DNA from: Candidatus Hodarchaeota archaeon
GTDB taxonomy: Archaea > Asgardarchaeota > Heimdallarchaeia > Hodarchaeales > Hodarchaeaceae
Direction: 5' to 3'
Assembly: GCA_016839815.1 (NCBI GenBank)
Contig: JAEOTM010000109.1
Coordinates: 1 to 19,773, forward strand
Length of the DNA stretch: 19,773 nucleotides
The notes below the pieces were generated by a model. That model worked only from the letters and a program-made list of their open reading frames with translations. It did not search any database and was not told the DNA's origin. Shown piece after piece: positions 1 to 16,361 of this stretch (its first letter is position 1; each line of letters starts with the position of its first letter). The translations under genes were made by a program, and so were the position numbers.

Positions 1-219
1 ATTCTTGCAGATGAACCCACAGGAAACTTAGATCTTGAAACAGGCTTAGAAATTATTGGATTATTAAAGGAATTAAATCGAGACCGTGGAACAACGGTGG
101 TTACTGCAACTCACGATCTCAAAATGATAGATGTTTCCGATCGTATTGTATGGATTCGAAATGGAAAAGTAGAACGCGATGAGTCTCGGGTGGACATCCA
201 GGTAACAGCGATTAGTTGA
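1..219 (+). CDS. ABC transporter ATP-binding protein, LolD/MacB (MJ0796-like) family; C-terminal fragment, 5' end outside window
   Basis: Manual frame-1 translation: ILADEPTGNLDLETGLEIIGLLKELNRDRGTTVVTATHDLKMIDVSDRIVWIRNGKVERDESRVDIQVTAIS*, with TGA at 217-219. Contains Walker B/D-loop (ILADEPTGNLD) and H-switch (THD). Absent from the ORF track because it has no start. Confidence 0.95.
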   Translation: MLADEPTGNLDLETGLEIIGLLKELNRDRGTTVVTATHDLKMIDVSDRIVWIRNGKVERDESRVDIQVTAIS

Positions 220-229
220 GAGGATAAGT

Positions 230-976
230 ATGGCAAATAGTAGTGAAATGGCGATACAGTTAACTGATGTCTGGAAAACCTACCACCTCAAAGGTGAGGA
301 TATTCATGCATTACGTGGATTAAATATGGGGATTAAATATGGAGAATATCGTGTCATTATGGGACCGTCTGGTAGTGGAAAGACTACTCTACTCAATATA
401 GTGGGAGCACTCGATACACCTACAAAAGGCGAAGTTTTAATCAATGATGAATCCTTAGTGGGAATGCGATCTAAAGACCTCGCGTCGGTACGAGCATATC
501 AAATTGGTTTTATTTTTCAATCTTTCAACCTCATACCTGTGTTAACCGCGTTAGATAATGTTATGATACCTTTAATCTTTAAAGGAGTTCCTTTATCAGA
601 GAGAAAAAGACGAGGTAAAGATATTTTGACTCGTGTAGGACTCGAAGGCCGGTTTGATCATAAACCTAATGAATTAAGTGGCGGTCAGCAACAACGAGTT
701 GCCATTGCCCGTGCATTAGCGAATGAGCCAACAATTTTACTTGCAGATGAACCAACTGCAAATTTAGATCTTCATACAGGATTTCAAATTGTTGAATTAC
801 TTCGTGAGTTAAATGAAGAAACTGGTGTTACTGTGATAAATACTACCCATGATCTGAAGCTGATTGATATTGCTGACAAAGTCTCTTGGCTCCGAGATGG
901 TGATATTACACAGACTCAGAAACGTATGAAGGTTGAACTTACTTCAGAAGAATTACCAATCGTAATTGATCTCTAA
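230..976 (+). CDS. ABC transporter ATP-binding protein, LolD/MacB family
   Basis: Walker A GPSGSGKT, Q-loop IGFIFQSFNL, signature LSGGQQQRVAIARAL, Walker B/D-loop LLADEPTANLD, H-switch THD. SD-like GAGGAT at 220-225. Confidence 0.97.
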   Translation: MANSSEMAIQLTDVWKTYHLKGEDIHALRGLNMGIKYGEYRVIMGPSGSGKTTLLNIVGALDTPTKGEVLINDESLVGMRSKDLASVRAYQIGFIFQSFNLIPVLTALDNVMIPLIFKGVPLSERKRRGKDILTRVGLEGRFDHKPNELSGGQQQRVAIARALANEPTILLADEPTANLDLHTGFQIVELLRELNEETGVTVINTTHDLKLIDIADKVSWLRDGDITQTQKRMKVELTSEELPIVIDL

Positions 977-981
977 AGATT

Positions 982-3900
982 TCATCTAGACACAGAAGTT
1001 TGAGATTTTGTATCCCAAATAAGAACCTTTTTTCGAATATGTGAAATAACTAGTTCAACAAGGGCCTCATAACCTCGAGGTGGTTGGCCAAATTTAGCTG
1101 GATAATAACAGGTGACGTGAGTTTCATAAAAATACGCACTAGTCTTCGTTAGAAACATTTCGCATTCCACTGGAAAAGCTCTCGAGTGGCCTTTCTTGCT
1201 CACTCTGAGATCATACATCAATCGATACGTATATGTATCAATGGTGTTCTTTTCAATTATTTGGACATCTCTTTGTTGGTAGGTCATTTTTTCGACATCA
1301 TCAGACGTAAAAATTGTCTCCATAAAATTCAGGAATTTATCCGTATTTGAATGATGGATACGTATTGGGATCAAAAATGAAAAGATTCCTTCCTCGCGGA
1401 CGGGACTTGTTTTTTTATCTTTTGACCATTTTCTAGAATGCATGGATGATATACCTTTTGCAGATTGATAAGAAGGTATTACAGAGCTAATAACTGCGGT
1501 AAGTATTGATAAAGACATTGCAACAACAGCCCAGATAACCTCAATTTTCGGAGTAACGAGTAGAGGGATGTTTAGCACAATGAAAAATGTATACGAACTA
1601 ATTCCAAGAATGTAGCCAATAACTCCACTGAGAATCCCAATTACTAGACTTTCTCCTAAGAAAATAAACGTGATATTAGCAGGATTTAAACCGATGGCAT
1701 TCAGAGTGTAAATTTCCTTTTTCCGTTCTAAAATACGTCTATACATGACGTTTGCTATTGTAAGACCAGAAACTATCATTATTAGAACTATTGATTCCAC
1801 ACCTTGAACTATTACTACCTCCCCATAATAATACCTAACTACAGATGATTTACTCTTTATCCATGCCTCGAATCCAAATGACACTACGTAATAATCCCCA
1901 AGAAAACTATAATCTGAATGTGTTCCCTCTTCAAGGTTTATATTGACTCGATTTAATTCCATCGAAGGTAATAGTTCAGCTTTGTCACTTGTGATGAAAA
2001 TTAAGTGATTAATATCAGCAAGAAGGGTAATTGGCCCGACTTCTGACTGACTTATTACTTGAGGCCGCATAGAATTTCCATCAAGGTCGGAAACTGACTT
2101 ATACTGATTTTCATTAAAGAAACCAGAAATCTTCACTCCGAAAGTGGTTTGAGTAGTTTTGTCAGTTATTAGGATCGAATCATTGATTGAAAAGCCTAGC
2201 TTTATTAAATTCGAAGGTACAAGAGCTTCATCAGAATAATTTGGCACTCTACCCGAGATGACAATTTGACTGAAATCGTAGAAAGCTTGTTCATCTTGAT
2301 AGTCAAAGGCCATAATTCCTGACACATTAAACCTGTGTGATCCATCTGTTAAAGCCCCTGATCCAAAAACATCCCAAATCGGGGTATTTTCCCATCGTTC
2401 ACTAGCATGAGCAATAGTCAAACCAAGGCTTGATGGAAGGGTTATTTCAGAGCGAAAGTCAGAAAAATCAGCAAAAGGAACTGTGGTTGATGTGTAATCC
2501 ACCGAAAAGTCAACGTTTCTGATCATAATCCCATCTATGTCCGGAATTCCTCCACTAGTAGGGATTCCTTGATGAGCAATCTGAGGACGTGTGCTAAAGC
2601 TTGTCAATGCAATAAATGCAAATATCATTATTGCTATACTTATGGTTGTAAGGCCAGATCGTAATCTTCTTCTTTTCAAATTACGCTTTGAAATCGAGAA
2701 ACTTGAGATGAACACCGAAAATAGTTGTGGCTCCTCAGAGCGGTCTTCTTTGAGCATTTTCGTAATTGCTGTTGAAAATAAATAGACACTTCCAATTACT
2801 ACAAGTGGGAAGATTAGAAGATCATTGGTATTTAATGACCTCATTGCGGGGAAGAAAAAGTATAGAAATACTGTAAGACAAGTATGAAGTATAATATACA
2901 ATGATATAAGTTGCATGATTTTCTCAGAGAAAAACCACGCTAATATCAGGGCAAATAGTCCAAAAATAGTCCAGAGAAGAAATACATTGTCTTGTGATAT
3001 CCGATTAACATAAGTTAGGGATTCTTCCAAGCTTTGGAGATTAAGGTAGGTTTTACGTAAAAAAAAATGGGCTAATTCGTAATCTCCACTCTCAAGATTC
3101 TCTTGAGCATCCAAGAGATCCTCTATGATCTGATCCATCTTTTCGTTATAGATCAAAGTATAATATCCCAAACGCTCAAGTTCCTGTAAGTCTGACAAAA
3201 CAACTTGCTGATAGTCTTCAATCTCCTTCATACTCGTACTGATAGAGAGTGCTGAAACTGAAAAACTCGTGGGGGTTATGAATTCAGTAATTTCATTACT
3301 TTGATATTCCGACGTTTTGTAAGGAATCTCTGAACCTGTTCCATAAATTTTTATATGAAGAGAGAATCCATCTGTCGCTGGTAAGAACATCTGGTCCTCA
3401 AATTCGGTGTTATCAAATGGTGAACCAAAAACTGGTAAATTCAATAAGGAATTTTCTACTACCATCTCTATAGCATGATACTCGATTTGGGGGGAGTTCG
3501 TTAACCAATAAGGGCCAACTAGGTCTACTTGATGCATTTCCTGAAGAGATAAAGTCAGATTTAATACTTGTGATTGATTTAGTACTAATCTTACCGAGCT
3601 CATATTGATTAATGAAGAGTTAGAATCTTTTTTTGCTAGTAGGTAAAAGGTGGTACCGCTGACAATTATAGGAATTGATACATTTCCTTGATTACCAGTT
3701 ATTGCTGGGTAAGATGCAAGTTGATATTCAAACTGGCCAGTTTCGTGAATTATTTCTTTGTATAACCATATTGATGTATTTGCTGCAGGAAAACCATTTG
3801 AATCATTAACTTGTAAGAAAATACTTGTAGTTAATCCTTGAGAAATTTCAAAACGATTTTCTGGTGATTGAGACAAATTTATGTCAATGAATAAGAGTTG

Positions 3901-4014
3901 ATTTATTCCCCCAAGAATAGCTATTGTAAGAAGACCTATTATCAAGAGAGAGAACTTTTTCAAATTATGCACCAGATGGAGATGAGTTCTATTTAACACC
4001 TTTAGGTAAATCAT
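982..4014 (-). CDS. Large FtsX/MacB-like ABC permease with extra N-terminal extracellular region and extra TM helices
   Basis: MacB-type amphipathic helix and TM1 (SKRNLKRRRLRSGLTTISIAIMIFAFIALTSF), extracytoplasmic core (GRVPNYSDEALVP...LGFSINDSI), FtsX motif (ERKKEIYTLNAIGLNPANITFIFLGESLVIG) plus further TMs. The N-terminal ~440 aa add a signal/TM, a beta-rich domain, a helical segment and ~3 TMs. An in-frame TTG at 3963 (MKKFSLLIIGLL..., GGTG upstream) may be the real start and would remove the overlap with the upstream gene. Confidence 0.9.
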   Translation of the reverse strand: MIYLKVLNRTHLHLVHNLKKFSLLIIGLLTIAILGGINQLLFIDINLSQSPENRFEISQGLTTSIFLQVNDSNGFPAANTSIWLYKEIIHETGQFEYQLASYPAITGNQGNVSIPIIVSGTTFYLLAKKDSNSSLINMSSVRLVLNQSQVLNLTLSLQEMHQVDLVGPYWLTNSPQIEYHAIEMVVENSLLNLPVFGSPFDNTEFEDQMFLPATDGFSLHIKIYGTGSEIPYKTSEYQSNEITEFITPTSFSVSALSISTSMKEIEDYQQVVLSDLQELERLGYYTLIYNEKMDQIIEDLLDAQENLESGDYELAHFFLRKTYLNLQSLEESLTYVNRISQDNVFLLWTIFGLFALILAWFFSEKIMQLISLYIILHTCLTVFLYFFFPAMRSLNTNDLLIFPLVVIGSVYLFSTAITKMLKEDRSEEPQLFSVFISSFSISKRNLKRRRLRSGLTTISIAIMIFAFIALTSFSTRPQIAHQGIPTSGGIPDIDGIMIRNVDFSVDYTSTTVPFADFSDFRSEITLPSSLGLTIAHASERWENTPIWDVFGSGALTDGSHRFNVSGIMAFDYQDEQAFYDFSQIVISGRVPNYSDEALVPSNLIKLGFSINDSILITDKTTQTTFGVKISGFFNENQYKSVSDLDGNSMRPQVISQSEVGPITLLADINHLIFITSDKAELLPSMELNRVNINLEEGTHSDYSFLGDYYVVSFGFEAWIKSKSSVVRYYYGEVVIVQGVESIVLIMIVSGLTIANVMYRRILERKKEIYTLNAIGLNPANITFIFLGESLVIGILSGVIGYILGISSYTFFIVLNIPLLVTPKIEVIWAVVAMSLSILTAVISSVIPSYQSAKGISSMHSRKWSKDKKTSPVREEGIFSFLIPIRIHHSNTDKFLNFMETIFTSDDVEKMTYQQRDVQIIEKNTIDTYTYRLMYDLRVSKKGHSRAFPVECEMFLTKTSAYFYETHVTCYYPAKFGQPPRGYEALVELVISHIRKKVLIWDTKSQTSVSR

Positions 4015-4447
4015 CGACAGTTATTTTTTCAAATTCTTTGATATCTCGTGAATGCTTTTGCCTCAGAGAGTGGGGCAATATGAATCCCACTAATTGCCGT
4101 TTCGATAGGTTTTCCACAAAGATTGAGATTGAAATTCGTGCTTCGAGTTCAGACATATTGTATTCCTTTTGAAATTCCGAAACTATGTCATTTATTCTGT
4201 TTTTACCATCGCAGAGTTTCCAAAAATGTGTTCCCATTTCGTCTAGTACAATTTTCCGACCAGTAGGAACTGAAAAAATCTTTGAAAAGAATCCACGTTT
4301 CTTAGATGGTACAGATTTAAGAACCAGTCCAATTTCACCACTATCATACTCCTTTACCTCTACTAATGGATTCTGAACAGGAGTAATTTTGAGTAATTCT
4401 TGTGCATTGACCTTTATTCCTGAACTATCTCTTCGTAGCTTTTGCAT
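3989..4447 (-). CDS. Stand-alone PqqD-family / RiPP recognition element (RRE)-like protein
   Basis: PqqD-like core IVLDEMGTHFWKLCDGKNRINDIVSEFQKEYNMSELEARISISIFVENLSKRQLV (LD..G..FW.L.DG...I..I...F...Y pattern, three helices) preceded by beta strands. Confidence 0.85.
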   Translation of the reverse strand: MQKLRRDSSGIKVNAQELLKITPVQNPLVEVKEYDSGEIGLVLKSVPSKKRGFFSKIFSVPTGRKIVLDEMGTHFWKLCDGKNRINDIVSEFQKEYNMSELEARISISIFVENLSKRQLVGFILPHSLRQKHSRDIKEFEKITVDDLPKGVK

Positions 4448-4462
4448 AGATCAACTCTCACT

Positions 4463-4693
4463 TCAAGGTAACAACATCGGTAAGAGGAAATTTAGAATCA
4501 AAGCAATTACTACTAATATTATCACTAATCTCATACTAAATTTAATTGATTCAATATCTTTTACTCGTTGTTGATCCCGCATCTCACAATCTGGAGAACA
4601 GTAGTCGCTAGATACAGAAACAACCTTCCCACAGGAAAAGCAGTGTCTATGCGGAGAAACTTTATGAGATACAGCGGGTTGTGAATTTTTCAT
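4463..4693 (-). CDS. DUF2116-family Zn-ribbon membrane protein
   Basis: PHRHCFSCGK...DYCSPDC (CxxC...CxxxC), then a charged helix and a C-terminal TM (LVIILVVIALILNFLLPMLLP). SD-like GAGGAT on the minus strand at 4701-4706. Confidence 0.85.
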   Translation of the reverse strand: MKNSQPAVSHKVSPHRHCFSCGKVVSVSSDYCSPDCEMRDQQRVKDIESIKFSMRLVIILVVIALILNFLLPMLLP

Positions 4694-4908
4694 GAATCAA
4701 ATCCTCTAATCCTCACTTCAGCTCTGAATCTTATACATTTTTTCTTCTGAATCTCTATGGTTATACTAAGGTACTCAAAAATTATAAGAATCTTGACAAA
4801 GAAATCAGATTCTCATCTAAAAAAAGATAAAAGTATACATCTATCTAATTTCGAAAAGAGTTCTAATCGATAGAAAGTAGTTCTTATGAGTAAAATGAGG
4901 CCTAATTT
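4694..4908. promoter_or_regulatory. Divergent promoter region with candidate TATA box and adjacent inverted repeat
   Basis: 215-bp AT-rich gap between divergent starts. Palindromic TTATAA at 4782-4787 preceded by an A-run. AGAATCT-N13-AGATTCT at 4787-4813. SD-like TGAGG at 4896-4900. Confidence 0.55.
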
Positions 4909-6390
4909 ATGAATCTTGACAAATCATCCAAATATTCTTTTCTTCTGGGATTATTAACCTTATTGACGATAAACTCTATTTTAATTCTTAATCCCGTATC
5001 CGCACTAACGATTACGATTGATGGAAATCCATCTGATTGGTTGGGTGATGGTCCTCCTCAAGGAACAAGTGACAGTATTGCAGGTCAATTCATTTATACC
5101 GATTTTTCGGGAGATGATGTAGGATATGGGCCATTAATCTATCCTGAAGGCGTTCCAGCGGGATGCGCAGATATATTAGAATTCCGTGTAACCACAGATA
5201 TCTCCAATATGTATCTTCTTGTAAAAATGAGAATTATTTCAGATCAAACGAAAGTAGTCGTTCATATTTTGTCAGATGAATTACCAGATTACAAAACAAA
5301 GAAAGAAGGAAGTTGGACGTGGACTACTGGCGGTAATGAAGGAAATATACCCTTTTGGCCAGGAATAGGAGTTGGAGTTACCATAGCCGATCCATTTGGT
5401 CTATTAACTACCCGTGAAGAAAATACTGTTTATTATGAATTAGCCACAGATACCAATGATCCAGATATGATTCAGGTTGGTGCAAATAAGAATTATAATG
5501 CGTTTGAAGTCTCTCTTGAACTAGCCCGATTAGAAGAATTAATTGGCTTAGAGAACGGGGAAATCAATGCTGGAGCAAAATTACACTTTTTAGCACTAGC
5601 ATATAGGATTGATGCCCCCATAGAGTTCGGGGCCCATGAAGTAAATGAGGCAGATGTCGAAGATGAAGCAGAGAAAAATCTAGTTACTGCATGGGAAGAT
5701 CCAGATATCTATGATATGATTGGATATAGTACTAAAGAGGATCAGATTAGTGCTTTATCAGATTGGTCACCAGGAGGACAGGGGAATACAATTCATTTTC
5801 CACGAGAATCACAAGCATGGTTAGAAGTAGATTTTCCTTTACCCATCCCTCCCACGACAATAGGTATCCAACCAACCTTCTCTGTAGAAGAAATAAACCC
5901 CAATACTTCTTTCATCCTTCAAGTGACCGTTATTAATTCAGGAGCCAAAGCATGGGATGTAAAAATGGCGTATAGTATTCCTAAAAGCTTTACTATCGTT
6001 AGCGGTTCATTAGTTCCTGGTGCAGTTGATGAAGGCCTATCAACTAATGAAACAACGTTTTATTCGTTAGATGACGAATTTGAAGTATTTGAGAGCCGAA
6101 GTTATTCGTTAAAGCTACAAGCTCCTGATATGGTTGATAATTATTTTATTAACTTCACATTTCAATTTTTAACATTAAATGAAACAGTATCTGGAGAGGA
6201 AGTGCTGATCAACGTAACTAGCCAAGCTAGTATCCTCATGCAGGTCGTGAATCCTACAGTATATGGTGGGGGGTATCCACTCGTGGGAGATGAAAATACA
6301 GCTCTCTTAGTATTGCTGGGAATTCCATTTATAATTGCCATAATTAGGTTAATTTCACAAGTAATTGCTCCACGGCAAGGAGGATCCTAA
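4909..6390 (+). CDS. Secreted, C-terminally membrane-anchored protein: glucodextranase-type DOMON-like domain plus Ig-like domain
   Basis: Signal peptide ending VSA. Segment TIDGNPSDW...YTDFSGDDVGYGPLIYP...ADILEFRVTTDISNMYLLVKM...DPDIYDMIG resembles the DOMON-like module of glucodextranases and archaeal amylopullulanases. Ig-like segment (FILQVTVINSGAKAWDV...). C-terminal TM (ALLVLLGIPFIIAII). Confidence 0.75.
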   Translation: MNLDKSSKYSFLLGLLTLLTINSILILNPVSALTITIDGNPSDWLGDGPPQGTSDSIAGQFIYTDFSGDDVGYGPLIYPEGVPAGCADILEFRVTTDISNMYLLVKMRIISDQTKVVVHILSDELPDYKTKKEGSWTWTTGGNEGNIPFWPGIGVGVTIADPFGLLTTREENTVYYELATDTNDPDMIQVGANKNYNAFEVSLELARLEELIGLENGEINAGAKLHFLALAYRIDAPIEFGAHEVNEADVEDEAEKNLVTAWEDPDIYDMIGYSTKEDQISALSDWSPGGQGNTIHFPRESQAWLEVDFPLPIPPTTIGIQPTFSVEEINPNTSFILQVTVINSGAKAWDVKMAYSIPKSFTIVSGSLVPGAVDEGLSTNETTFYSLDDEFEVFESRSYSLKLQAPDMVDNYFINFTFQFLTLNETVSGEEVLINVTSQASILMQVVNPTVYGGGYPLVGDENTALLVLLGIPFIIAIIRLISQVIAPRQGGS

Positions 6391-6391: not shown

Positions 6392-9300
6392 ATGAAGAGA
6401 AAACAGCTTGTTCTAAGTGTAGTTCTTCTCTCGCTAGTTTTACCATTTACTATTTCGAAAGCGCTGTTTTATAATGTGAATATTGATCCTGCTTCGTCCT
6501 TCGAAGAATTACCACAGGTAAATGCCCCTTCTGTAAATGAAGTAAAGTTAGAAACAAAAATCCAAGTACCAGAATTACCCTTTAAATTTAATACAGAAGG
6601 CCCTATCCTGAGATATGAAGATCCTGCACATGATTCAATCACTGTACTGGGAAGAGCTCAACCTGAAGATGCAGACTTTGATTTTCTGGATATGGAGTTT
6701 GGAATGAATAATACACATTTATTCATAAATACAACAATGCGGGGAGATCCAGGGAGATTTTGGAGTAAGGGATATCACTCTGATCTAGGAGGAGTCGATT
6801 TAGTATTCGCTTTTGATACAGGGGATGCGAATGATAAATATCCGAATAATTCATTTTTCACCTATAAACGGCAAAAGTTCAGCGCTGCACGAGTATTTAT
6901 GGATCCGAAATTTACATGGAATTATTCATGGCAGATCTATGACCCTATCGGAGATGAAAAAGGCTACACATGGGATAACGAACTTTTATTCATGAATTCG
7001 TCGGGTTTAATAAATGGTGTTGAAGATACTGGATTACTTGATACAGTACTCGGGCTATTTGGGAATGATGCCTCCGCTTACGATCCTCGTGCCGGGAAAA
7101 ATACTACCACAATCACTTATTACAGCGATGAGACACGCACAGTGTATACAGCCCTACCTTGGCATTATTTGGGTATTTCTGAATCCCAAGACTTGTCTGA
7201 TTATGCTTTTAATGTGACTGCTTTTACATGTAACGATTTCATGACAGCAGATGCAGGAGGAGAGGCAGATGATATTCATAGTGCAATCTTTGATGTTATA
7301 GGAGATGATGGTACAGTTGAACTAATGGGAAATACTTCAATGATTCATAGCTGGCTAGAAGTAGATTTTGGTGCAGATGAGATCACTGAACATGTTAATT
7401 ATGAGTACCAACATCCAATAACAGGAGAATCACGTGAATTCGTCCCTACGAGAGAAAAAGTGTATTTAGATATTCCGTGGGATATTCCCAAGGGTCCTGA
7501 TGAACCATGGACTAATTATCACAAAACCTGGGCTGCAAATGATTATACAACCAACCTCCGGATGTTTAGTATCCAACACAACTTGACAAAGGATAGCACT
7601 ACCTTCCGAGTTTATGTCACTAATGATACAATTGAAAATTATATCCGTAATGGAGCAACCGAATACGATAACATTAATTATACTAGTAACCCATATGATA
7701 GAGCTCGTGAAACAATTGACTGGTCGAAAGTAAGTATATTTATAACTGTAGATACTCTTCCAGGGGGTCAGATATTACTCCCAACGCGTGAAGATGCAGC
7801 TGTAAATAAACTAGGTGCGTGGGAGATGGTTTTCGAGATATCTTCCGCGAACGATCTTACAAATAAATTCTGGCAATATAATTCTACTACCGATGAGGTT
7901 ACTAACCAAACGTTTCAAGATTTATCGATAGACTCGAATCAAGATAATTTTGATTTCGATTTGTTTGGTCGACAGCTTCTATTAACTCGGTATCTCAATA
8001 TCACTCTACCTACAGATTTAATCCGTCCTCCAAGTGGAGATCTTGTACGGTTTGGTATATTCACTATTACAAAACAAAATATTACTGGAACGATTGCCGG
8101 TGAAGAGGTAGATCTTCCTGATGTCGTCGATGTTTCCTCTGGGGCTTGGGCATGGAAAGCTCAAGAACCTAGAATTCAAGAAGTTGGATCTGATCCTGGT
8201 TATGATGAAGTAATCCCTGCAGGTGCACAAGGATTCAATAAGAGTACTCGTATGCTCCATTCATTCATTGAATATGATTTTGGTACAAATAATCTTGATG
8301 TTGGTGTTGCTCCGATATCGAACATAATTTCTGCTTCAGCTGAAGCTGAAAATGATACCAAAACACTAAATGGTTTACCAGAAGACCAAAAAGCTGTGGA
8401 TATCTCGGGAGTCACTGTGGGTTATCGATTTGATCGACATGACGTTGCTTGGGGAGCTGAAGATCCTGGATTAGAACGAGAGTTTAGTGCATTAGTTTTT
8501 GCAGTTCAAATGAATCAGTTCATTAATACAACAAGTACTAGCATCGCAATTCTACTTGATTTAGAGGAAGGAGGAGATACGCAACATTTCATCCATTCTG
8601 ATATAAATTTAAGTCTCGATATGTCAGGATTCAATTGGGATTACGCAATATATTCCACTGATCTAAACTATCCAGGTGCGACTCAGGTCATAACAAACTG
8701 GGATGGTAATAGAGTATTCTCTTCCCTTGATACAGTAACAGTACTAGATGAGGATATTATTACAGATGTTAAGGTGGCAGGCTCTGTAGCGTATTTCGAA
8801 ATTGAAAATAGCCTGTTTTTGCATAGTATATCTCCTGATCGAAGTATTTCTGGAGAAATGGTTGTAATCTCCTTCCCAAATCCAGATACGACAAATATCT
8901 CACTTCTACCTTCTCCTACATATTTCGATATTGTTGGAAACTTAACAGGAAATCAGATAACTTCTGGAATACCTGTTGATTTATCTGTTCCAGGGCCTGT
9001 AATATTTACTGAAGACGTGAACGTCGCTTCCTACGGAATCGTGTCTCCTACCCTGACAGTATTGGATAATAAGACATTTTCTATAAGAGCAAACATCACT
9101 GATCCCGATGGATTATCTGGTGGAGTATTAACAAGACCAACAGTGAATTATTATACAACGAATGGAGAAGTAGGCTCTGAAATAATGAAAAAGGTGAGTG
9201 GAACTAATGATACCTACGAAGCACGATTTCCAGCTTGGATACAAGCGTATAATTCCACATGGTTAACACCAGGATGGACAGGTGCAACATTCTTTTACAC

Positions 9301-10027
9301 AATAACCGCATTCGATGTGTTCAATAATAAAGGTGGTACAATATCATTGATGTCACTAGAAATTATCCCCAGTGATTTTGAAGCGCCCGAGTTTAATTGG
9401 TTTGTTGTAGACTTGTGGATAGAAAATACGTTTAATCGATCTCTTGCAACTCCTTTTGAATTGACTTATAACATGACTGATGATGATTTTCTCCGAATTA
9501 ACACTAGTGCGGTTGATCACTACTGGATAGGAGAGCAAATTGGCACTAATGTTACTGATCATTACTGGAGTATCTTAGATGAAAATGGTACTCAAGATAT
9601 CGATCGGATCCAGACATTCCTTGATATTCGAAATTTATACGGTTTAACTACTGCTTTTGTCAGTAGCCTTCAAATAAATCTTAGTATTGATGGAGGGAAG
9701 AGCTTCTCTTTACGGGATTTGAAGGTTGATCGTTATGGTGCAAGTTATTATGAAAAATCAGGAAGATTGTTTGATCCAAGTGCACAGCTCGGACCTTTCT
9801 TCCCTAATACCGAAGTCCATCTGAATATTGTCGCTACCGACGTATTCGGTAACTCTATAGCAAGTGATTCAATCATAATCGAAGTTGATTACAAGATTCC
9901 ACCAACACCACCAGATTATCGTTCTTCACTAGCAGATTTAGCATTATTATGGGTAGTACCTCTAATTCTTGTAGTATCTATTGTTATTGCATTGAAACCA
10001 GATCTAATAATTAGACGAAAGAGATAA
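6392..10027 (+). CDS. Large membrane-anchored surface glycoprotein with ~3 divergent DOMON-like modules and 2 Ig-like modules
   Basis: Start moved from TTG 6365 to ATG 6392: GGAGG at 6379-6383, 1 nt after the upstream stop, and a clean signal peptide MKRKQLVLSVVLLSLVLPFTISKA. Repeated motifs VFAFDTGD / IFITVDTLPGG / IAILLDLEEGG and MIHSWLEVDFG / MLHSFIEYDFG. Ig-like ends TAFDVFNN and ATDVFGN. Pro linker, TM and RRKR tail. Many N-x-S/T sequons. Confidence 0.75.
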   Translation: MKRKQLVLSVVLLSLVLPFTISKALFYNVNIDPASSFEELPQVNAPSVNEVKLETKIQVPELPFKFNTEGPILRYEDPAHDSITVLGRAQPEDADFDFLDMEFGMNNTHLFINTTMRGDPGRFWSKGYHSDLGGVDLVFAFDTGDANDKYPNNSFFTYKRQKFSAARVFMDPKFTWNYSWQIYDPIGDEKGYTWDNELLFMNSSGLINGVEDTGLLDTVLGLFGNDASAYDPRAGKNTTTITYYSDETRTVYTALPWHYLGISESQDLSDYAFNVTAFTCNDFMTADAGGEADDIHSAIFDVIGDDGTVELMGNTSMIHSWLEVDFGADEITEHVNYEYQHPITGESREFVPTREKVYLDIPWDIPKGPDEPWTNYHKTWAANDYTTNLRMFSIQHNLTKDSTTFRVYVTNDTIENYIRNGATEYDNINYTSNPYDRARETIDWSKVSIFITVDTLPGGQILLPTREDAAVNKLGAWEMVFEISSANDLTNKFWQYNSTTDEVTNQTFQDLSIDSNQDNFDFDLFGRQLLLTRYLNITLPTDLIRPPSGDLVRFGIFTITKQNITGTIAGEEVDLPDVVDVSSGAWAWKAQEPRIQEVGSDPGYDEVIPAGAQGFNKSTRMLHSFIEYDFGTNNLDVGVAPISNIISASAEAENDTKTLNGLPEDQKAVDISGVTVGYRFDRHDVAWGAEDPGLEREFSALVFAVQMNQFINTTSTSIAILLDLEEGGDTQHFIHSDINLSLDMSGFNWDYAIYSTDLNYPGATQVITNWDGNRVFSSLDTVTVLDEDIITDVKVAGSVAYFEIENSLFLHSISPDRSISGEMVVISFPNPDTTNISLLPSPTYFDIVGNLTGNQITSGIPVDLSVPGPVIFTEDVNVASYGIVSPTLTVLDNKTFSIRANITDPDGLSGGVLTRPTVNYYTTNGEVGSEIMKKVSGTNDTYEARFPAWIQAYNSTWLTPGWTGATFFYTITAFDVFNNKGGTISLMSLEIIPSDFEAPEFNWFVVDLWIENTFNRSLATPFELTYNMTDDDFLRINTSAVDHYWIGEQIGTNVTDHYWSILDENGTQDIDRIQTFLDIRNLYGLTTAFVSSLQINLSIDGGKSFSLRDLKVDRYGASYYEKSGRLFDPSAQLGPFFPNTEVHLNIVATDVFGNSIASDSIIIEVDYKIPPTPPDYRSSLADLALLWVVPLILVVSIVIALKPDLIIRRKR

Positions 10028-10337: not shown

Positions 10338-13300
10338 ATGAAAATTAAAAGAAAAGTAGCTCCACTATTGCTCATTACAATATTTATGATATCTGCCTGG
10401 GCAATTCTCCCTCTTTTAAATCCAGGAACCATGAGCGTTCTTTCAGTAGATAAGCTCAGTTCCGCAGATCTGGCAGTAACAAATCCAACAAAATATGTAG
10501 ACGGGCAACTGTGGGATTATACAACTGACGAAATAGTACTTTTCGACTCACTAGCTGATGGTGATGCATTCGTCGATATCCAGACTGTGTATGTCACAAA
10601 ATCGAGAACCTACTTGTATTTTGCATTTGAAGGTCTATTCAATTATACCGCAACAGATGCAGCTATGGGAATGTTCATCGATCTTGATCAAACCGCAGAT
10701 TCTGGATGGAATGGTACATCTGATTCTTGGGGTCGAAGTACAAGCGTTGGTAACAATATGTACTTCCCAGAAATTAACTTCTATGTCTGGGATTGGCAAC
10801 CTGGAAACTTTGGTTTCGCCAGATACGACGGTGCTGGTGGCTGGGAAGGCCATGATGATTGGGATGCAGTAGTAATGACTGCACGCAATAATTATACTTG
10901 GGAAATGGCTATACCTTTCACAGCTTTTGAATCTGTAGGTTTTACTGAACCTAGTACAATTGCCTTCTCTCTTTGGGTTGCAGATAACTCTGCTTTCGAG
11001 ATTGCTCCCGATGATCCTTCAGTTACACCCAATGATCGTGTTAATGAAGGTGATGGCGCGGATATTGACGTAATTACAAATTTCGCTGTCGTTGAATTAG
11101 ATACTGCCTCTGATCCCTTCACAGTTGACGGAGATCTAAGTGATTGGACATCCGCCGATTTAATTATAGATGATACTGATGATGATTCAGCACCTTCAGT
11201 CAATGAAACAGGTGAAATAAAAGAAGTCTATGCAAAGGCAACTATGGCCGGTATATATTTCGGTATAAACGGTGATTTCAATTCCACAGCCGGAGATGGT
11301 GCATTTGGTGCTTTCTTTGATGTAGATCAAGTTCCAGACTCTGGTTATAATGGTACATCTGATTCGTGGGGCCGAGGCATGGGAATCGCTAATAGCATGT
11401 ATTTCCCAGAATATAACTTCTATGCTTGGGACTTCCAAGAAAATAACTTCGGATTTGCTCGATGGAATGGTGCCAGCTGGGGTAATCATGATGATTGGGA
11501 TCCTTATCTAAAAACCGCTCATACGAACACCTCTTGGGAAATGTTTATTCCTTATGCAGCTTTCGAAGACTTTGATTTAGACGTCTGGTCTAAAATTGCT
11601 TTTTCGTTTTGGTTTGCAGGGAATGTACCTGGGCAATTTGATCCACGATCAGCAACAGATATTGCACCCAATGATCCAGCTGTCGCAGCAAATGATGATT
11701 TAGAAGGTAATGATACTGATCTTATCTCAAACTTTGCTGTTCTCGATCTTGAAACTACTGCTATCACTGTTTCGATGACAGCTGACGGAGATGATGCCGA
11801 TTGGCCTATCAACGCCGATATGTATGTCGATGCTGATGATCCAACAAATGCATTTGGTGATTTCCACAACATGACTATTTCTGCAGCTGAAGAAGGTATT
11901 GCTATCCTCCTCAAAGGAGATTTCGATGGTGGTGCGTTCGATGGCGGTTGGCATCTTGCTTTTGATGTCGATCAGTTCATGAGCTCAGGTAAAAATCAAT
12001 CAGAATCCTGGATTGGTGGTTTGACTGTTGGTTCTGGTAATCCAAATCACTATGCAGATTTCTGGATAAATATGTGGGACCTGGATACTACAAACAGAAA
12101 ATTCTACACCTGGAATGGAACTCATTCTATTGAAAATGGTGATCTTGGTGCATGGGATTTAGCTAAATCAGCTGACGAAGATACCATAGAAATTATCATT
12201 CCCTTCGCTCTGTTAGGTCTTGATGGCCGTTATCCAACTCAATTCGCAGCCTATGCCGTTACAGGTAGTAATGGTGGGTATAATGATACCCTCCCGATGC
12301 CAGTTCATGGTAATTTTACTGATGCATACCTAGATTGGTTTAATGTCATTATCCCCTCAGTCATGGGATTACGTAATCAGTTCCCTGAATTCGTAGCAGG
12401 ATCACAGATGCAAACTCCTACCCCTGATGTCACTGCTGATGATAAGGTCAATCTGAAAATTAATGCTACTGATGCTGACGGTAGTATTGCAGGAGTAAAA
12501 GTCTACTATGACGTTGATGGAACTCCATTAGAAGCTGATTTTAACGCTCTTACAGGTGACCAATGGAATGTTACTATCGGTCCGTTTGTAGCAGGTTCCT
12601 TTGTACAATACTACATTGAAGCTGCTGACGACAAAGGAGCTACTGTTGAAACTGGTACCACATCTATGTTCATACTTCCCTCAGGAGCATATGTACCTTC
12701 TCGAACAATAGACGGAGATATTGCTGATTGGACAGGCTTAGCACCCCTCCCTGGTAACTATTGGGTAACCAGTGATGGTGTATTTATCTTCCATGATCCA
12801 ATGTACGATGATACTGGTGCTGATCTTGATGGAGATGGATTAGGTGATTATATCTATAATGATCCCGATGATCAAGTCGCTACCGATGGTACTGCTGATG
12901 TTCTTCAAATTAGGATTCTTGAAGATGCCGCTAATGTATTCTTCTTGATCACTGTTCGTGATTTAACATTAGCTTCCCGTGTAGTTTTCCAGATTTCGAA
13001 TGATATCAATTCTACTGTTGACGAATGGGGTGTAGGCGGCAATGAAATTCGCTTACCTTCATGGACAAGTGGAAATGGCTTTGCGGTCTCTTTAGCTCAC
13101 GAAGATCAAACCTTTGTGGTTGCTGGTGAAGTTAATACCCTCTTCTGGGCTGGTGGTGGTGAAGCTACAACTGATGCAATTCCAGTAAAGATGATTGCTG
13201 GTCTTGGTTGGGAAGTAGCCGTACCAAAAGCTACTATGCTTAAATGGGGTGTAGATTTCCGTGATCCAATGTACATGATGGGATCTGCCTTCCGTAGCGA

Positions 13301-14348
13301 TAATCCTCAGGAATTCTCGGCACACGAGGTGAATGATGGTGATGACGGATCTGGTGGTTCAATCCTTGGTGCTCAATGGGCTGATCCAGATACCTACGAT
13401 CTCTTCTGGCTTGATGAAGCTGCGCAAGTAGCTGAACTCAACTACAATGGTGGTGCCTGGAAAACTTTATCGTCTGATGCGAATGCAGTTCATTTCTGGA
13501 ACACCTCTTCAGCTTGGATGCGACTAGAACTCGCTGATTTCACTCCTCCAGGAGTTGAAGCCGATGCTCCAGTAGCCTACAATTTCATGGCAACTCCAGC
13601 TCAACCAGATGATCTTGATACTATTGATGTAAGTGTTTCTATTGGTGATGCGACAGGTATAGACTTTGTTACCCTTAACTGGGGTGACGGCGCGGTCAAT
13701 ATGACATATGTTGGTTTTGGCGTCTATACAGCTACTATTGGACCTTTTGCCTATGATTACAATCTTGATCTTCAAGTTCGAGGTGTGGATACATTTGGCA
13801 ATATGGGATCCTGGCTAAATTATCCGACTATCGTTATAGCCAGTAGTGATGTTATTGCTCCATTATTCGGCCTTCTAGGTCCTACCTTTACTCCTGATGC
13901 CCCTGAAGTGGGTGATACAGTAACTGTCTCTATTGATGTTACAGATGCAGGAGTAGGTGTGGCTATGGTGTCAATGTACTGGTCTATTGATGGATCAACA
14001 TTTTTCACAGAATCAATGACTGCTGGTGCAGGTGACTCTTGGACGGCTGACTTACCTTCTGATGCAACAAGCGCTGCGGGTATAGTGTATGTATACTTCT
14101 ATGCCGAGGATGCTGTTGGAAATAGCAGGTATGATGCAGATAGTTCACCATACGAAATAGTTGTGACTGCTCCAGTGGAAACTACTACAACCTCAACCAC
14201 TGAAGTTACTACTACCGATGAGGAATCTACTACTGATGAGGAAACCACTACTACCGAGGATGATGGTGGAACCCCAGGGTTTGGATTCTTGTCAGTAATC
14301 GTTCTTGTCGGTGCAGCTGTCGTAGTATCCCGTAGAAGAAGAAGATAA
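10338..14348 (+). CDS. PGF-CTERM-anchored multi-module surface glycoprotein: 3 tandem DOMON-like repeats, Ig-like, glucodextranase-type DOMON-like, 2 Ig-like, Thr/Glu-rich linker
   Basis: Probable start ATG 10338 (GGAGTG at 10323-10328; the ORF track starts at GTG 10326). Basic plus hydrophobic signal peptide. Four xDG(D/Q)xx(D)W-type module starts at ~10500, 11127, 11784 and 12711. Ig-like modules ending AADDKG, VDTFGN and EDAVGN. Ends TTTTSTTEVTTTDEE...GTPGFGFLSVIVLVGAAVVVSRRRRR. Confidence 0.85.
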   Translation: MKIKRKVAPLLLITIFMISAWAILPLLNPGTMSVLSVDKLSSADLAVTNPTKYVDGQLWDYTTDEIVLFDSLADGDAFVDIQTVYVTKSRTYLYFAFEGLFNYTATDAAMGMFIDLDQTADSGWNGTSDSWGRSTSVGNNMYFPEINFYVWDWQPGNFGFARYDGAGGWEGHDDWDAVVMTARNNYTWEMAIPFTAFESVGFTEPSTIAFSLWVADNSAFEIAPDDPSVTPNDRVNEGDGADIDVITNFAVVELDTASDPFTVDGDLSDWTSADLIIDDTDDDSAPSVNETGEIKEVYAKATMAGIYFGINGDFNSTAGDGAFGAFFDVDQVPDSGYNGTSDSWGRGMGIANSMYFPEYNFYAWDFQENNFGFARWNGASWGNHDDWDPYLKTAHTNTSWEMFIPYAAFEDFDLDVWSKIAFSFWFAGNVPGQFDPRSATDIAPNDPAVAANDDLEGNDTDLISNFAVLDLETTAITVSMTADGDDADWPINADMYVDADDPTNAFGDFHNMTISAAEEGIAILLKGDFDGGAFDGGWHLAFDVDQFMSSGKNQSESWIGGLTVGSGNPNHYADFWINMWDLDTTNRKFYTWNGTHSIENGDLGAWDLAKSADEDTIEIIIPFALLGLDGRYPTQFAAYAVTGSNGGYNDTLPMPVHGNFTDAYLDWFNVIIPSVMGLRNQFPEFVAGSQMQTPTPDVTADDKVNLKINATDADGSIAGVKVYYDVDGTPLEADFNALTGDQWNVTIGPFVAGSFVQYYIEAADDKGATVETGTTSMFILPSGAYVPSRTIDGDIADWTGLAPLPGNYWVTSDGVFIFHDPMYDDTGADLDGDGLGDYIYNDPDDQVATDGTADVLQIRILEDAANVFFLITVRDLTLASRVVFQISNDINSTVDEWGVGGNEIRLPSWTSGNGFAVSLAHEDQTFVVAGEVNTLFWAGGGEATTDAIPVKMIAGLGWEVAVPKATMLKWGVDFRDPMYMMGSAFRSDNPQEFSAHEVNDGDDGSGGSILGAQWADPDTYDLFWLDEAAQVAELNYNGGAWKTLSSDANAVHFWNTSSAWMRLELADFTPPGVEADAPVAYNFMATPAQPDDLDTIDVSVSIGDATGIDFVTLNWGDGAVNMTYVGFGVYTATIGPFAYDYNLDLQVRGVDTFGNMGSWLNYPTIVIASSDVIAPLFGLLGPTFTPDAPEVGDTVTVSIDVTDAGVGVAMVSMYWSIDGSTFFTESMTAGAGDSWTADLPSDATSAAGIVYVYFYAEDAVGNSRYDADSSPYEIVVTAPVETTTTSTTEVTTTDEESTTDEETTTTEDDGGTPGFGFLSVIVLVGAAVVVSRRRRR
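10497..11760 (+). repeat. Intragenic tandem duplication (~630-640 bp unit) encoding repeats 1 and 2 of the surface protein
   Basis: Identical AATGGTACATCTGATTC at 10710-10726 and 11349-11365, and CATGATGATTGGGAT at 10851-10865 and 11487-11501. Protein SGWNGTSDSWGR..MYFPEINFYVWD..NFGFARY..HDDWD versus SGYNGTSDSWGR..MYFPEYNFYAWD..NFGFARW..HDDWD. Confidence 0.9.
14178..14263 (+). repeat. Low-complexity Thr/Glu/Asp linker with short tandem 18-bp units
   Basis: ACTACTACCGATGAGGAA / TCTACTACTGATGAGGAA followed by ACCACTACTACCGAGGAT, encoding TTTDEE STTDEE TTTTED. Typical spacer before a PGF-CTERM. Confidence 0.8.
14274..14348 (+). other. PGF-CTERM archaeosortase sorting signal
   Basis: PGF, then TM (GFLSVIVLVGAAVVVS), then RRRRR and stop: the tripartite motif processed by archaeosortase A-type enzymes. 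Confidence 0.9.
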
Positions 14349-14376
14349 TTCTTCTCCTCCCTTTTTTCTTTTTTTT
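14340..14376 (+). terminator. Oligo-T terminator with short hairpin
   Basis: AGAAGA-TAAT-TCTTCT (14340-14355) spans the stop codon and is followed by CCTCCCTTTTTTCTTTTTTTT. Confidence 0.7.
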
Positions 14377-14483
14377 ACCAATCCCTGAATTTTTCCTACC
14401 TTTATTTTTCATGTCGTAATCCTTGAAAATACAATCTCTTTTCAGGTTAAATTGCCCTAATAACTTAAATGAGGTACTAGTTA

Positions 14484-16361
14484 ATGGCACACATTGCATG
14501 GCAAGAAACAGTACATTCTGATGGTACAGATGAATATCTCTTTCCCTCTAATCCTCGCGTTGGTGATGAGGTTACCTTTAAAATCAGAGTTTATAATGTG
14601 AATCCCATTCGTGCCATTTATCTCTGCTTTGCACCTGAGGGGGAGGAATTAACACTCAAATTGGAAGAAAAAGAGACTGATAGCTTTTTTACTTATTATA
14701 AAATCTGTCATAAGATAAAAACAAAGAGTCTAAGTTACAGGTTTATGATCATAACCAGTGAGGTTCAATATTGGTATACTTCTGCTGGAATGTTTTCTTA
14801 TCTTCCTACAGACCAGACTAATTTTAAGCTGTTATTAGACTTTGATGATCCTGAATGGGTCAAGAAATCTGTTTTTTATCAAATCTTCCCTGATCGGTTT
14901 TTCGATGGAGATCCTGATAATAATGTTCAATCAGGTGAATATACCTATCGTGGGCGCACTTCTGTTGCACGTAAATGGGGAGAGCTTCCTCAAACCTCTA
15001 ATTCAACATACTCACATGTAGATTTCTACGGAGGGGATTTAGAAGGGATAATGCAGAAAATTCCATATCTTGTTTCATTAGGAATAAATGCTCTTTATCT
15101 TAATCCCATTTTTACCTCTCTTTCGAACCATAAGTATGATACGATCAATTATAAGGAGATTGATCCCCATTTTGGAGGAGAAAAGGCATTTCTTAAGTTA
15201 GTTAGAGCTTTACATAGTCAAGAGGTGAAAATCATCTTAGATGGGGTATTTAATCATACAGGTGATCAACATACTTGGTTTAAAGCTGCATATACCAATA
15301 AAGAAAGTAAATTCACCAATTTCTACACTTTCAATGAGCATCCCAATGATTATGTGGCATGGTTCGGACATAAATCATTACCTAAGTTGAATTATAGTAA
15401 CGCTGATTTGTGTAATGAGATTTATCGTGATGATAATTCTATTGCTCAGTATTGGCTGAAAGAGCCATATAATATCGACGGGTGGAGAATTGATGTTGCA
15501 AATATGCTAGCTAGACAAGATGATTATGAAATCTTTAAACAAATATGGGAGGAGTTTCGGAGGTCAGTTAAAAAAGTGAAAGCATCATGTTACTTGCTTG
15601 GGGAACATTTTTTTGATCCCACACCCCTTCTGAATGGTTCTCGGTTAGATGCTGTCATGAATTATCGTGGATTTTACCAGCCAGTACTCAAGTGGCTTCT
15701 ACAGAGTGAAGAAATTGGCGTAATCACGGGAAGTAGATTCCATCGTCAACAATTGCATACTTTTTTTTCTACTGAGATGATGAATCGCCAAATGAAAGAC
15801 TTCCGTTCAGTGTTACCATTCCAACTACAACTTCTACAATTTAATCTCCTCTCCAGTCATGATGTCCCTCGATTCAATACGTTAGCAGATAATGACAAAC
15901 GAATTATCCAAATGGGTTTAATCTTTCTTTTTACCTACATTGGTGTCCCTTCTATCTATTATGGTGATGAAATCGGGTTAGAAGGAGGACGTGATCCAGA
16001 TTGCAGAAGATGTATGATCTGGAATGAATCTAAATGGAATAAACCATTGTTAGAGTTCTATAAGACTTTAATCCGACTAAGAAAGAATTCAGTAGCTTTG
16101 GAAAAAGGATCATTTCGAACAATTTACCTGGAAGATGATGTAATTTGCTATATTCGACAATATCAAAATGAGGTTATAGCTACGGTAATTAATAATGGAG
16201 ATTCTCCAGTCAAAGTAGAGATTCCCTTTTGGAAGGTAGGAATGATGGACGAAAAAATGTATACCCTGCTCGAATCAACTAATCTGCAAATTGAGGACGG
16301 AGTTCTTACTATATTCCTTTCTAAGTATTCAGGGGAAATTATTAAAAACTACCAGAAATGA
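14484..16361 (+). CDS. malZ: Cytoplasmic GH13 alpha-glucan hydrolase, maltodextrin glucosidase (MalZ) / neopullulanase-cyclomaltodextrinase group
   Basis: N-terminal beta domain, YQIFPDRFFDGD, GGDLEGI, LYLNPIF, NHKYDT, region I LDGVFNH, WFGHKSLPKLNY, region II DGWRIDVAN (D337), region III GEHF (E374), region IV LLSSHD (D460), YYGDEIG, DPDCRRCMIW. No signal peptide. SD GAGGT at 14471-14475. GEHF is MalZ-like, but the symbol is tentative. Confidence 0.9.
   Translation: MAHIAWQETVHSDGTDEYLFPSNPRVGDEVTFKIRVYNVNPIRAIYLCFAPEGEELTLKLEEKETDSFFTYYKICHKIKTKSLSYRFMIITSEVQYWYTSAGMFSYLPTDQTNFKLLLDFDDPEWVKKSVFYQIFPDRFFDGDPDNNVQSGEYTYRGRTSVARKWGELPQTSNSTYSHVDFYGGDLEGIMQKIPYLVSLGINALYLNPIFTSLSNHKYDTINYKEIDPHFGGEKAFLKLVRALHSQEVKIILDGVFNHTGDQHTWFKAAYTNKESKFTNFYTFNEHPNDYVAWFGHKSLPKLNYSNADLCNEIYRDDNSIAQYWLKEPYNIDGWRIDVANMLARQDDYEIFKQIWEEFRRSVKKVKASCYLLGEHFFDPTPLLNGSRLDAVMNYRGFYQPVLKWLLQSEEIGVITGSRFHRQQLHTFFSTEMMNRQMKDFRSVLPFQLQLLQFNLLSSHDVPRFNTLADNDKRIIQMGLIFLFTYIGVPSIYYGDEIGLEGGRDPDCRRCMIWNESKWNKPLLEFYKTLIRLRKNSVALEKGSFRTIYLEDDVICYIRQYQNEVIATVINNGDSPVKVEIPFWKVGMMDEKMYTLLESTNLQIEDGVLTIFLSKYSGEIIKNYQK

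Follow-up and report, generated by a model that had tools for sequence, protein, structure and literature searches.

No known prokaryotes are more closely related to eukaryotes than the Asgard archaea, whose feeding on polymers is, to our knowledge, barely known. The described systems closest to the one reported here are the amylopullulanase loci of Thermococcales, the non-catalytic surface proteins of Ruminococcus bromii and Bacteroides, and the type VII ATP-binding cassette (ABC) systems. The Glucodextran_C domain belongs to the DOMON-like superfamily, has a CBM9-like fold, and is present in GH57 amylopullulanases (PMC10074034), and the core of CBM74 is CBM9-like as well (bioRxiv 10.1101/2022.11.20.514607). 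The characterised type VII ABC systems have no transmembrane substrate path and act by mechanotransmission, in which ATP drives work outside the membrane (PMC5985334), and some of the known examples work on outer partner proteins or hydrolases (PMC7668044, PMC12646458). Here we analysed a stretch of 19,773 nt from a Candidatus Hodarchaeota archaeon (the window), in which genes of a MacB/FtsX-type ABC machine stand head-to-head with the genes of three surface proteins, F, G, and H, followed by a GH13 gene.

The window is the entire contig C60 of the source metagenome-assembled genome (MAG), G000 (4.24 Mb, completeness 89.5%), and near homologues of its proteins carry the names Candidatus Hodarchaeales, Kariarchaeaceae, or 'Promethearchaeota' archaeon. 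No 16S rRNA gene was found in the MAG; by these homologue names, and with two protein tails that resemble the Heimdall-CTERM model, the host is placed among the Heimdall-group Asgard archaea. Genes were called from a listing of open reading frames (ORFs) together with Pfam and NCBIfam scans, and transmembrane (TM) helices and signal peptides were called by hydropathy. In the reading that we prefer, with a probability of roughly 0.55, the window would be one arm of an accessory alpha-glucan island with detached modules, and the type VII ABC machine would be likelier a mechanotransducer than an importer. The architecture of the locus, the fold of the module, the content of the island, and its co-inheritance are shown by the analysis.

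By hydropathy, each of F, G, and H opens with a signal-like helix at the N-terminus and closes with a TM helix at the C-terminus, and Pfam, NCBIfam, and PDB sequence searches found no catalytic family in any of them, in agreement with an earlier note on this DNA, which had described three consecutive anchored surface proteins without a recognised catalytic domain. The PDB sequence searches with F, G, and H returned no meaningful match, and Pfam at E values up to 5, applied to single H repeats and to G segments, returned Big_7 Ig-like domains and no other family. Through BLAST of overlapping chunks, we found a module of ~285 aa common to F (residues 36-315) and H (794-1075), and three repeats of ~215 aa (R1-R3) at residues 55-700 of H. 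F is composed of a signal peptide, a Glucodextran_C-type module (30-315), an Ig-like beta domain (~318-446), and a TM anchor. H is composed of a signal peptide, the three Trp/Asp-rich repeats, Ig-like domains (matched by Pfam as Big_7), the module (781-1075), a Thr-rich linker, and an anchor. The direct Pfam scan for PF09985 matched H weakly and below the cut-off (E 3.7e-4) and did not match F. When a profile of the F/H module was searched against 1.84 billion representatives, 209 proteins were retrieved, and PF09985 was present in 20 of the 26 matches that were scanned (best E 3.1e-56).

An AlphaFold2 (AF2) model of the F module was built from a 36-sequence alignment (pLDDT 86.3); an earlier run on full-length F with a 6-sequence alignment reached a pLDDT of 53 and was discarded as unusable. 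The model aligned with domain C of the Arthrobacter glucodextranase (1UG9, residues 771-1020) with a VIA-align Z of 18.5 (root-mean-square deviation 3.2, 213 residues aligned) and a Foldseek E of 3.8e-9, followed by CBM74 of Sas6 (Z 11.5-11.9 over ~197 residues, 12-14% identity), CBM9 (Z 10.5-11.1), and ethylbenzene dehydrogenase gamma (Z 9.6). By the profiles and the model, F and H each carry one divergent Glucodextran_C (DOMON/CBM9-like) module. In hhalign comparisons with the module profile, R1 and R2 gave probabilities of 81% and 69%, and R3 is related to R1 and R2 by BLAST and is linked to the module through these two alone; H probably holds three further diverged module copies. For G, comparisons with the module by hidden Markov model and hhalign, using two and four orthologues, gave no significant match, nor did G match Pfam, NCBIfam, or PDB; only marginal module matches and an atlas lead (0.83) to a Glucodextran_C cluster were seen. 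The tally is two firm and five probable modules. Of the roughly eight DOMON-like modules counted in the earlier note, the glucodextranase-type modules of F and H stand firmly and R1-R3 probably, while G gave no significant match.

F has three orthologues (84%, 79%, and 70% identity), and so does G. The anchors of F and G are plain TM helices, and the tails of H and of K, the protein at the right end of the window, resemble the Heimdall-CTERM model, of which we found no mention in the literature. The H anchor scored 22.9 bits with NF045529 (cut-off 24) and 14.9 bits with TIGR04126 (cut-off 24.5), and its C-terminus, read by eye, runs through the Thr-rich linker to a PGF motif, a TM helix, and an RRRRR tail. 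The K C-terminus consists of APGF, a TM helix, and a basic tail, and reached 15.7 bits with the Heimdall-CTERM model, under the cut-off. Because G begins 1 nt past the F stop codon, F and G form one operon. Oligo-T tracts lie 3' of the stop codons of both G and H; the spacer after H reads as a probable archaeal terminator, and H and GH13 seem to be transcribed separately. The GC content is 0.42-0.45 across gene H (window 11000-14000) and 0.33-0.39 in the remainder, a rise probably explained by richness in Asp, Gly, Ala, and Trp.

The module profile matches 10 of the 83 genomes of the class. In G034, G030, G068, G077, and G018 (a member of the same genus), the module occurs within anchored GH57 + Glucodextran_C enzymes of 1070-1330 aa, where it lies between the catalytic domain and the membrane anchor. 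A CUT1-type importer adjoins the GH57 enzyme in G034 and G018 (SBP_bac_8/1 in both, with a MalK-like ATPase); BPD_transp_1 was confirmed in the G034 importer, and a glucan phosphorylase is also located there. In G015, of the same genus, GDE_C is fused to a Glucodextran_C-type module (G015:C1:154026-157541) beside an island-like esterase; the GDE of G000 has neither module nor signal peptide. All detectable Glucodextran_C-type modules of G000 and G007 (99% complete) are located inside the island, and no Glucodextran_C module was detected in the GH57 giants of G000. Since other Heimdall-class genomes have the module fused to GH57 or GDE enzymes beside CUT1 importers, 'detached, non-catalytic binding protein' fairly describes a real difference in architecture. 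By these comparisons, a classical Thermococcales-like locus exists within the class and the G000/G007 island is a derived variant, which differs in that the module is detached into F and H, the GH57 giants are without it, and the island has no CUT1 importer.

The same modules could also be read as stalks or S-layer-like attachment parts of structural envelope, adhesin, or scaffold proteins, which the ABC machine would insert, extract, or remodel in the manner of the type VII system LolCDE, by which lipid-anchored proteins are extracted (PMC5985334). Pfam names PF09985 'SLH-like binding module', and sugar binding by it is undemonstrated (PMC10074034); its place in the GH57 fusions, between catalytic domain and anchor, would suit a stalk, and a PqqD paralogue on contig C101 lies between two secreted PGF-CTERM proteins. 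We consider this unlikely, as the partners of the module in relatives are alpha-glucan enzymes, the nearest folds after glucodextranase are the carbohydrate-binding CBM74 and CBM9, and F, G, and H are too rare (2/83 genomes) for general envelope components. On our preferred reading, F and H may bind alpha-glucan, which the context suggests through the fold likeness to CBM74 and the domain company of the module in relatives.

The window continues on a second contig of G000, and the actual locus consists of C104, reversed, followed by C60. An exact, in-frame overlap of 23 nt ties the start of the window to the end of the reverse complement of C104, and the two pieces of ATPase 1 jointly match the 261-aa G007 orthologue, the ILADEPT segment being common to both pieces. 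The 23-base overlap falls in the ILADEPT-coding stretch that both paralogous ATPases share, and the assembler probably broke there. Together, the two contigs form an island of ~70 kb. After the ABC genes, C104 encodes a protein of 318 aa, an M28-headed FtsX of 1643 aa together with an ATPase of its own, a DUF6785 protein, an OPT-like protein, and a PMT_2 protein, then three GH57 giants (979, 1343, and 1386 aa), all of which combine a signal peptide and a Thr-rich linker with a TM/RRRR anchor; the count of secreted and anchored GH57 giants for the island is 2-3. Next come an EEP-family protein, the GDE_C debranching enzyme, and an esterase. No substrate-binding protein (SBP) or BPD_transp_1 of a CUT1 importer was found in the island ORFs scanned, and no TonB-dependent receptor or SusD family in any scanned ORF. 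The earlier note had proposed that binding is moved to non-catalytic proteins, which fits the detached modules of F and H but leaves out the three secreted, anchored GH57 giants on C104. The G007 island has a PMT_2-like membrane domain and a Glucodextran_C module joined in one protein (G007:C49:170206-172350, 714 aa); the G000 counterpart (C104 13577-14812, 411 aa) has the PMT_2 part only.

We found that G007:C49:142,413-191,071, from a second species of the genus, is collinear with C60 and C104 over 27 genes at 48-92% protein identity, with the exception of the MalZ GH13. This collinearity and the GH57 and GDE fusions in relatives bear out the proposed link of the locus to alpha-glucan use. 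Searched class-wide, F, G, H, and FtsX1010 (the large permease of the window) each occur in G000 and G007 alone (2/22 genus genomes, 2/83 class genomes), and a search confined to the genus found the GH57 giants and the MalZ-type GH13 in the same two genomes (2/22). A third MAG has the permease, two genes, F, and G in the order of the window, judged from consecutive accession numbers, and F and G also lie together on a fourth, short contig. In the hunt for a third locus, two metagenome scans returned nothing, and a scan of genomes gave G007 and a weak WOR-3 fragment alone.

The GH13 protein passed the MalZ equivalog NF008051 with 587.2 bits (cut-off 568, residues 27-619) and matched PF00128 with an E of 3.7e-70. 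It has no signal peptide, and the motifs DGVFNH, GWRIDVA, GEHF, and SSHD are kept, in keeping with the signal-less GH13 of the earlier note; by its sequence, the protein is a cytoplasmic MalZ-type maltodextrin glucosidase and an ordinary member of the family. Its G007 orthologue (54% identity) is located at G007:C49:189107-191071, the far end of the island and not beside H; GH13 is therefore not fixed next to H, and oligo-T tracts stand after G and H. The island looks circularly permuted or rearranged at GH13 between G000 and G007. A 130-aa ORF in G013 (G013:C145:1831-2196) is 70% identical to residues 435-556 of the window GH13 and is either a contig-end fragment or an island remnant in a third genus genome.

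Pfam, NCBIfam, and the coordinates placed the two ATPases, the FtsX permease, the PqqD protein, DUF2116, and the 215-bp divergent spacer as previously claimed. The ABC genes described are present; the set is incomplete and continues on C104 beyond the window edge, with a 115-aa Cys4 zinc-ribbon protein, a 216-aa FtsX, and the start of ATPase 1. The C-terminal piece of ATPase 1 in the window shares 75% identity with the G007 ATPase (261 aa) over residues 194-261 of the latter. ATPase 2 is 76% identical to its G007 orthologue and has a canonical Walker A, signature, Walker B, and H-loop. The best NCBIfam matches of the ATPases were LolD (2.5e-65), DevA, DarD, MacB, and FtsE, and because all scores are under the equivalog cut-offs, we claim no orthology; the ATPases are of the MacB/LolD/FtsE type.

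FtsX1010 starts with a head (extracellular domain ECD1, residues 42-343, with a beta-rich part and a helical stretch), followed by three extra TM helices, a MacB unit that includes ECD2 (474-732), and ~165 aa of cytoplasmic tail (845-1010). ECD2 is a 259-aa loop at the MacB_PCD position, and PF12704 was undetected in FtsX1010, yet aligned paralogues carry it. Among 5.8 billion proteins, FtsX1010 has two orthologues (71% and 48% identity). The head evolves fastest (34%/25% identity to G007 versus 64% in TM6-8); it showed no paralogue in the genome, no similarity to F, G, H, or K, and no atlas match above 0.79. Because residues 260-1010 are homologous to giant M28-FtsX paralogues, FtsX1010 is an M28-FtsX scaffold on which another head sits. 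Neither orthologue has the first 17 residues of the ORF as listed; translation probably begins at a later codon, and the 26-nt overlap with the PqqD gene might then be spurious.

The small 216-aa FtsX (PF02687 E 9.5e-20) has ~18 outer residues between TM1 and TM2 and no large outer domain. DUF2116 is the first gene of the minus-strand operon and encodes a protein with a Cys4 zinc ribbon at its N-terminus and a TM helix (56-74) at its C-terminus; it is 59% identical to the G007 orthologue, whose place beside FtsX1010 was seen by BLAST against the G007 locus only. The PqqD protein is cytoplasmic, has a full-length domain match, and is 61% identical to its G007 orthologue; the gene is located immediately upstream of FtsX1010 and adjoins it in both G000 and G007. 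We found no link of PqqD with FtsX in archaea in the literature. On these sequences, we read the ABC as a fully heteromeric type VII (MacB/FtsX-fold) machine, like a split BceB, with a genus-specific PqqD-fold accessory.

The best NCBIfam matches of the PqqD protein are peptide chaperones (ScmD, lasso PqqD), all below cut-offs, and the ATPase is similar to those that export darobactin (DarD) and lactococcin-972. With its full-length domain, PqqD might be a genuine recognition element (RRE) for ribosomally synthesized and post-translationally modified peptides (RiPPs), and the FtsX/ABC machine might export a ribosomal peptide or confer immunity to it. This is very improbable in our view, because the window, the first 32 kb of C104, and the paralogous blocks yielded no maturase, be it a radical-SAM protein, a YcaO, a lasso cyclase, or another type, and no candidate precursor peptide was found. 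Moreover, throughout the genus the paralogues of PqqD are constant parts of a membrane machine.

The cassette of Cys4 protein, small FtsX, and two ATPases is present in three copies in G000 (C85, C101, and C104/C60), each paired with a PqqD protein and one large FtsX without its own ATPase (1501, 579, and 1010 aa, respectively). At C101:1396-4209, the third PqqD paralogue (114 aa) lies between two same-strand secreted proteins, one with a PGF-CTERM anchor (Pfam) and the other with a similar basic tail; this arrangement hints that PqqD-fold proteins are linked to anchored surface proteins. PqqD paralogues with 24-33% identity occur in 13 of 21 genus genomes, and in at least 11 genus genomes a paralogue is located 12-18 kb from M28-FtsX, mostly at ~12.5 kb. 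The neighbours inspected, on C85 of G000 and in G009, where the whole block is conserved, were M28/OPT-like genes and no glucan genes. The synteny of ABC/PqqD with carbohydrate genes expected in the earlier note was therefore found for the FtsX1010 locus in G007 and not for the inspected neighbourhoods of the PqqD paralogues.

The paralogous cassettes raise the possibility that the ABC/PqqD operon is independent of F, G, and H, being part of a nutrient machine on C104 (System B: M28-headed FtsX, ATPase, DUF6785, OPT-like) or serving another envelope task, and that it was co-located by block inheritance. System B is located 1-14 kb from the window edge, the neighbours of the three cassettes are M28-FtsX, DUF6785/OPT-like, TldD/PmbA, and GH2 genes and not alpha-glucan genes, and the divergent spacer is not conserved. 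In contrast, FtsX1010 and F are each confined to the same two of 83 class genomes, DUF2116 is the sole above-cut-off copy in the genome and stands beside FtsX1010 in G007, and three genomes retain FtsX1010-PqqD-DUF2116 / F-G head to head at a protein divergence of 48-70%. System B, for its part, has an ATPase next to its M28-FtsX, which leaves the small-FtsX/two-ATPase cassette free for FtsX1010. We regard independence as possible, although doubtful.

Another reading, favoured by the missing CUT1 importer of the island, is that the MacB/FtsX ABC itself energises maltodextrin uptake. Elsewhere in the genome, however, C168 encodes an SBP_bac_1 protein, two BPD_transp_1 permeases, and an OB_MalK ATPase beside a GH13. 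The MalK-type ATPase is 47-48% identical to the ATPases adjoining GH57 enzymes in relatives, and the C168 system is predicted to be a conventional CUT1 importer. The earlier note had itself named a normal maltodextrin importer as evidence against uptake by the ABC, and its suggestion largely fails on this system. Furthermore, no OPT-like gene is adjacent to FtsX1010, and the characterised type VII ABCs are without a transmembrane substrate path (PMC5985334), so direct uptake by this machine can be given very little weight. An SBP system on C150 was also considered as the maltodextrin importer and was rejected, as its fused permease and TOBE_2 ATPase make it Fbp/Pot-like.

Following the preferred reading of an alpha-glucan island with a mechanotransducing ABC, F, H, and probably G would hold alpha-glucan or an enzyme layer at the cell surface, where the three anchored GH57 giants would cut the polymer. 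Oligosaccharides would enter via a conventional importer (the C168 CUT1 system) or the OPT-like permeases of the island, and the cytoplasmic MalZ-type GH13 and the GDE debranching enzyme would finish the breakdown, the trimming of imported maltodextrins by MalZ and GDE being what is known of their families. By analogy with all characterised type VII systems, the ABC would turn cytoplasmic ATP hydrolysis into motion of the outer head without sugar transport; most likely it moves this head rather than carrying sugar across the membrane. The fast-evolving FtsX1010 head would be the part that could act on F, G, and H or on bound polymer. Gene order and co-inheritance make a coupling of the ABC to F, G, and H plausible. 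A stronger proposal is that FtsX1010, the small FtsX, the two ATPases, PqqD, and DUF2116 form a dedicated mechanotransducer that works the F/G/H array by loading, releasing, or pulling alpha-glucan or by assembling the array; we offer it tentatively and with considerable doubt.

Several points weigh against the island reading or parts of it. The divergent spacer is poorly conserved between G000 and G007, AT-richness aside, and an alignment of the two spacers showed no conserved operator. Co-inheritance is documented in 3-4 MAGs that are close relatives of one another, and one gain event may account for it. The island is not purely alpha-glucan, because the M28-FtsX/OPT-like system, esterases, and the EEP-family protein lie inside it, and the ABC/PqqD machine as a family is not glucan-specific, because its paralogues occur genus-wide without glucan neighbours where inspected. 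G, one third of the surface array, could hide an enzyme, and the substrate of the C168 importer is putative. Direct binding of sugar or alpha-glucan is undemonstrated for any Glucodextran_C domain (PMC10074034), and given this and the Pfam label 'SLH-like', the modules could serve envelope attachment or act as stalks.

The features of the window are listed in Table 1.

Table 1. Features of the 19,773-nt window with positions, strands, and supporting evidence
Feature	Position	Strand	Evidence or remark
ABC ATPase 1, C-terminal 72 aa, MacB/LolD type	1..219	+	gene start on contig C104
ABC ATPase 2, 248 aa	230..976	+	PF00005 E 2.2e-33
FtsX1010 permease, 1010 aa, 8 TM	982..4014	-	PF02687 E 1.5e-13, residues 742-853
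PqqD/RRE-fold protein, 152 aa	3989..4447	-	PF05402 40.9 bits, cut-off 23.4
DUF2116 protein, 76 aa	4463..4693	-	PF09889 39 bits, cut-off 26.8
AT-rich divergent spacer, 215 bp, DUF2116 to F	4694..4908	.	coordinates and sequence reading
Surface protein F, 493 aa	4909..6390	+	profile search, Pfam scan of matches, AF2 model
Surface protein G, ~1211 aa from ATG 6392 (1220-aa ORF)	6365/6392..10027	+	ORF opens at TTG 6365
Surface protein H, ~1336 aa (1340-aa ORF)	10326/10338..14348	+	BLAST repeats, hhalign, PF09985
Spacer with long oligo-T tracts directly 3' of H stop	14349..14483	+	sequence reading
MalZ-type GH13, 625 aa	14484..16361	+	NF008051, PF00128
Protein J, 303 aa	16458..17369	-	no family match (Pfam, NCBIfam)
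Protein K, at least 737 aa, anchored, runs off the right end of the contig	17560..19773	-	no family match

If the dedicated machine proposed above exists, it would be an ATP-powered apparatus for polysaccharide capture at the surface, a function not known for any ABC system, and the PqqD/RRE fold would be used outside RiPP biosynthesis and peptide natural products. Should the ABC motor act on the array, type VII mechanotransduction would extend to archaeal nutrient capture. The island itself is a lineage-specific rebuild of the classical archaeal starch locus, in which the putative binding module has moved off the enzyme into a multi-module surface array and, in the island neighbourhood, MacB/FtsX-type machines stand in place of the usual binding-protein-dependent importer. 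Even without coupling, the fused and detached states of the module would provide a natural experiment on whether Glucodextran_C is a true carbohydrate-binding module.

Compared with a polysaccharide utilization locus of the Bacteroidota type, the locus has no SusC/SusD pair among the scanned ORFs, and the host is an archaeon without an outer membrane. The PqqD protein resembles RiPP recognition elements in its full-length PF05402 domain and differs in having no maturase or precursor and in the position of its gene immediately upstream of a permease. GH13 is similar to E. coli MalZ (GH13_21) in its full-length equivalog pass, absence of a signal peptide, and catalytic Asp/Glu/Asp, whereas its position in the island is not conserved. 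The ABC machine shares with MacAB-TolC, LolCDE, FtsEX-EnvC, BceAB, and YbbAP-TesA the FtsX-fold unit of four TM helices, a probable outer domain between the first two helices, ATPases of the MacB/LolD type, and mechanotransmission as the expected mechanism. Unlike these type VII systems, it is archaeal and has an 8-TM permease with two outer domains, a 4-TM permease without ectodomain, and two different ATPases, to which a PqqD-fold protein, a tail-anchored DUF2116 zinc ribbon, a 115-aa Cys4 protein, and a cytoplasmic tail of ~165 aa are added; it is without an adaptor or an outer-membrane duct.

Like Sas6 of Ruminococcus bromii (CBM26 + CBM74) and SusE/SusF of Bacteroides, F and H are surface proteins without a detectable enzyme domain, built of large, putatively starch-binding beta-sandwich modules and with amylases alongside. 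They differ from these in that the likeness of the F module is in fold only (12-14% identity), that no dockerin, cohesin, or SusC/D is present, and that anchoring is by a TM helix or a PGF/Heimdall-CTERM-like tail, with alpha-glucan binding being putative. In comparison with the Thermococcales loci of GH57 amylopullulanase and MalEFGK (CUT1), the island carries its module off GH57 and on F and H, with three extra diverged copies in H; it has neither a GH57-Glucodextran_C fusion nor an adjacent CUT1 importer, both of which are present in G034 and G018, and a type VII ABC stands head-to-head with the surface proteins. What it shares with the Thermococcales loci are GH57 enzymes that are secreted, carry a Thr-rich linker, and are anchored at the C-terminus, and surface Glucodextran_C modules combined with cytoplasmic finishing enzymes. 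The Thermococcales arrangement itself was found in the relatives G034 and G018.

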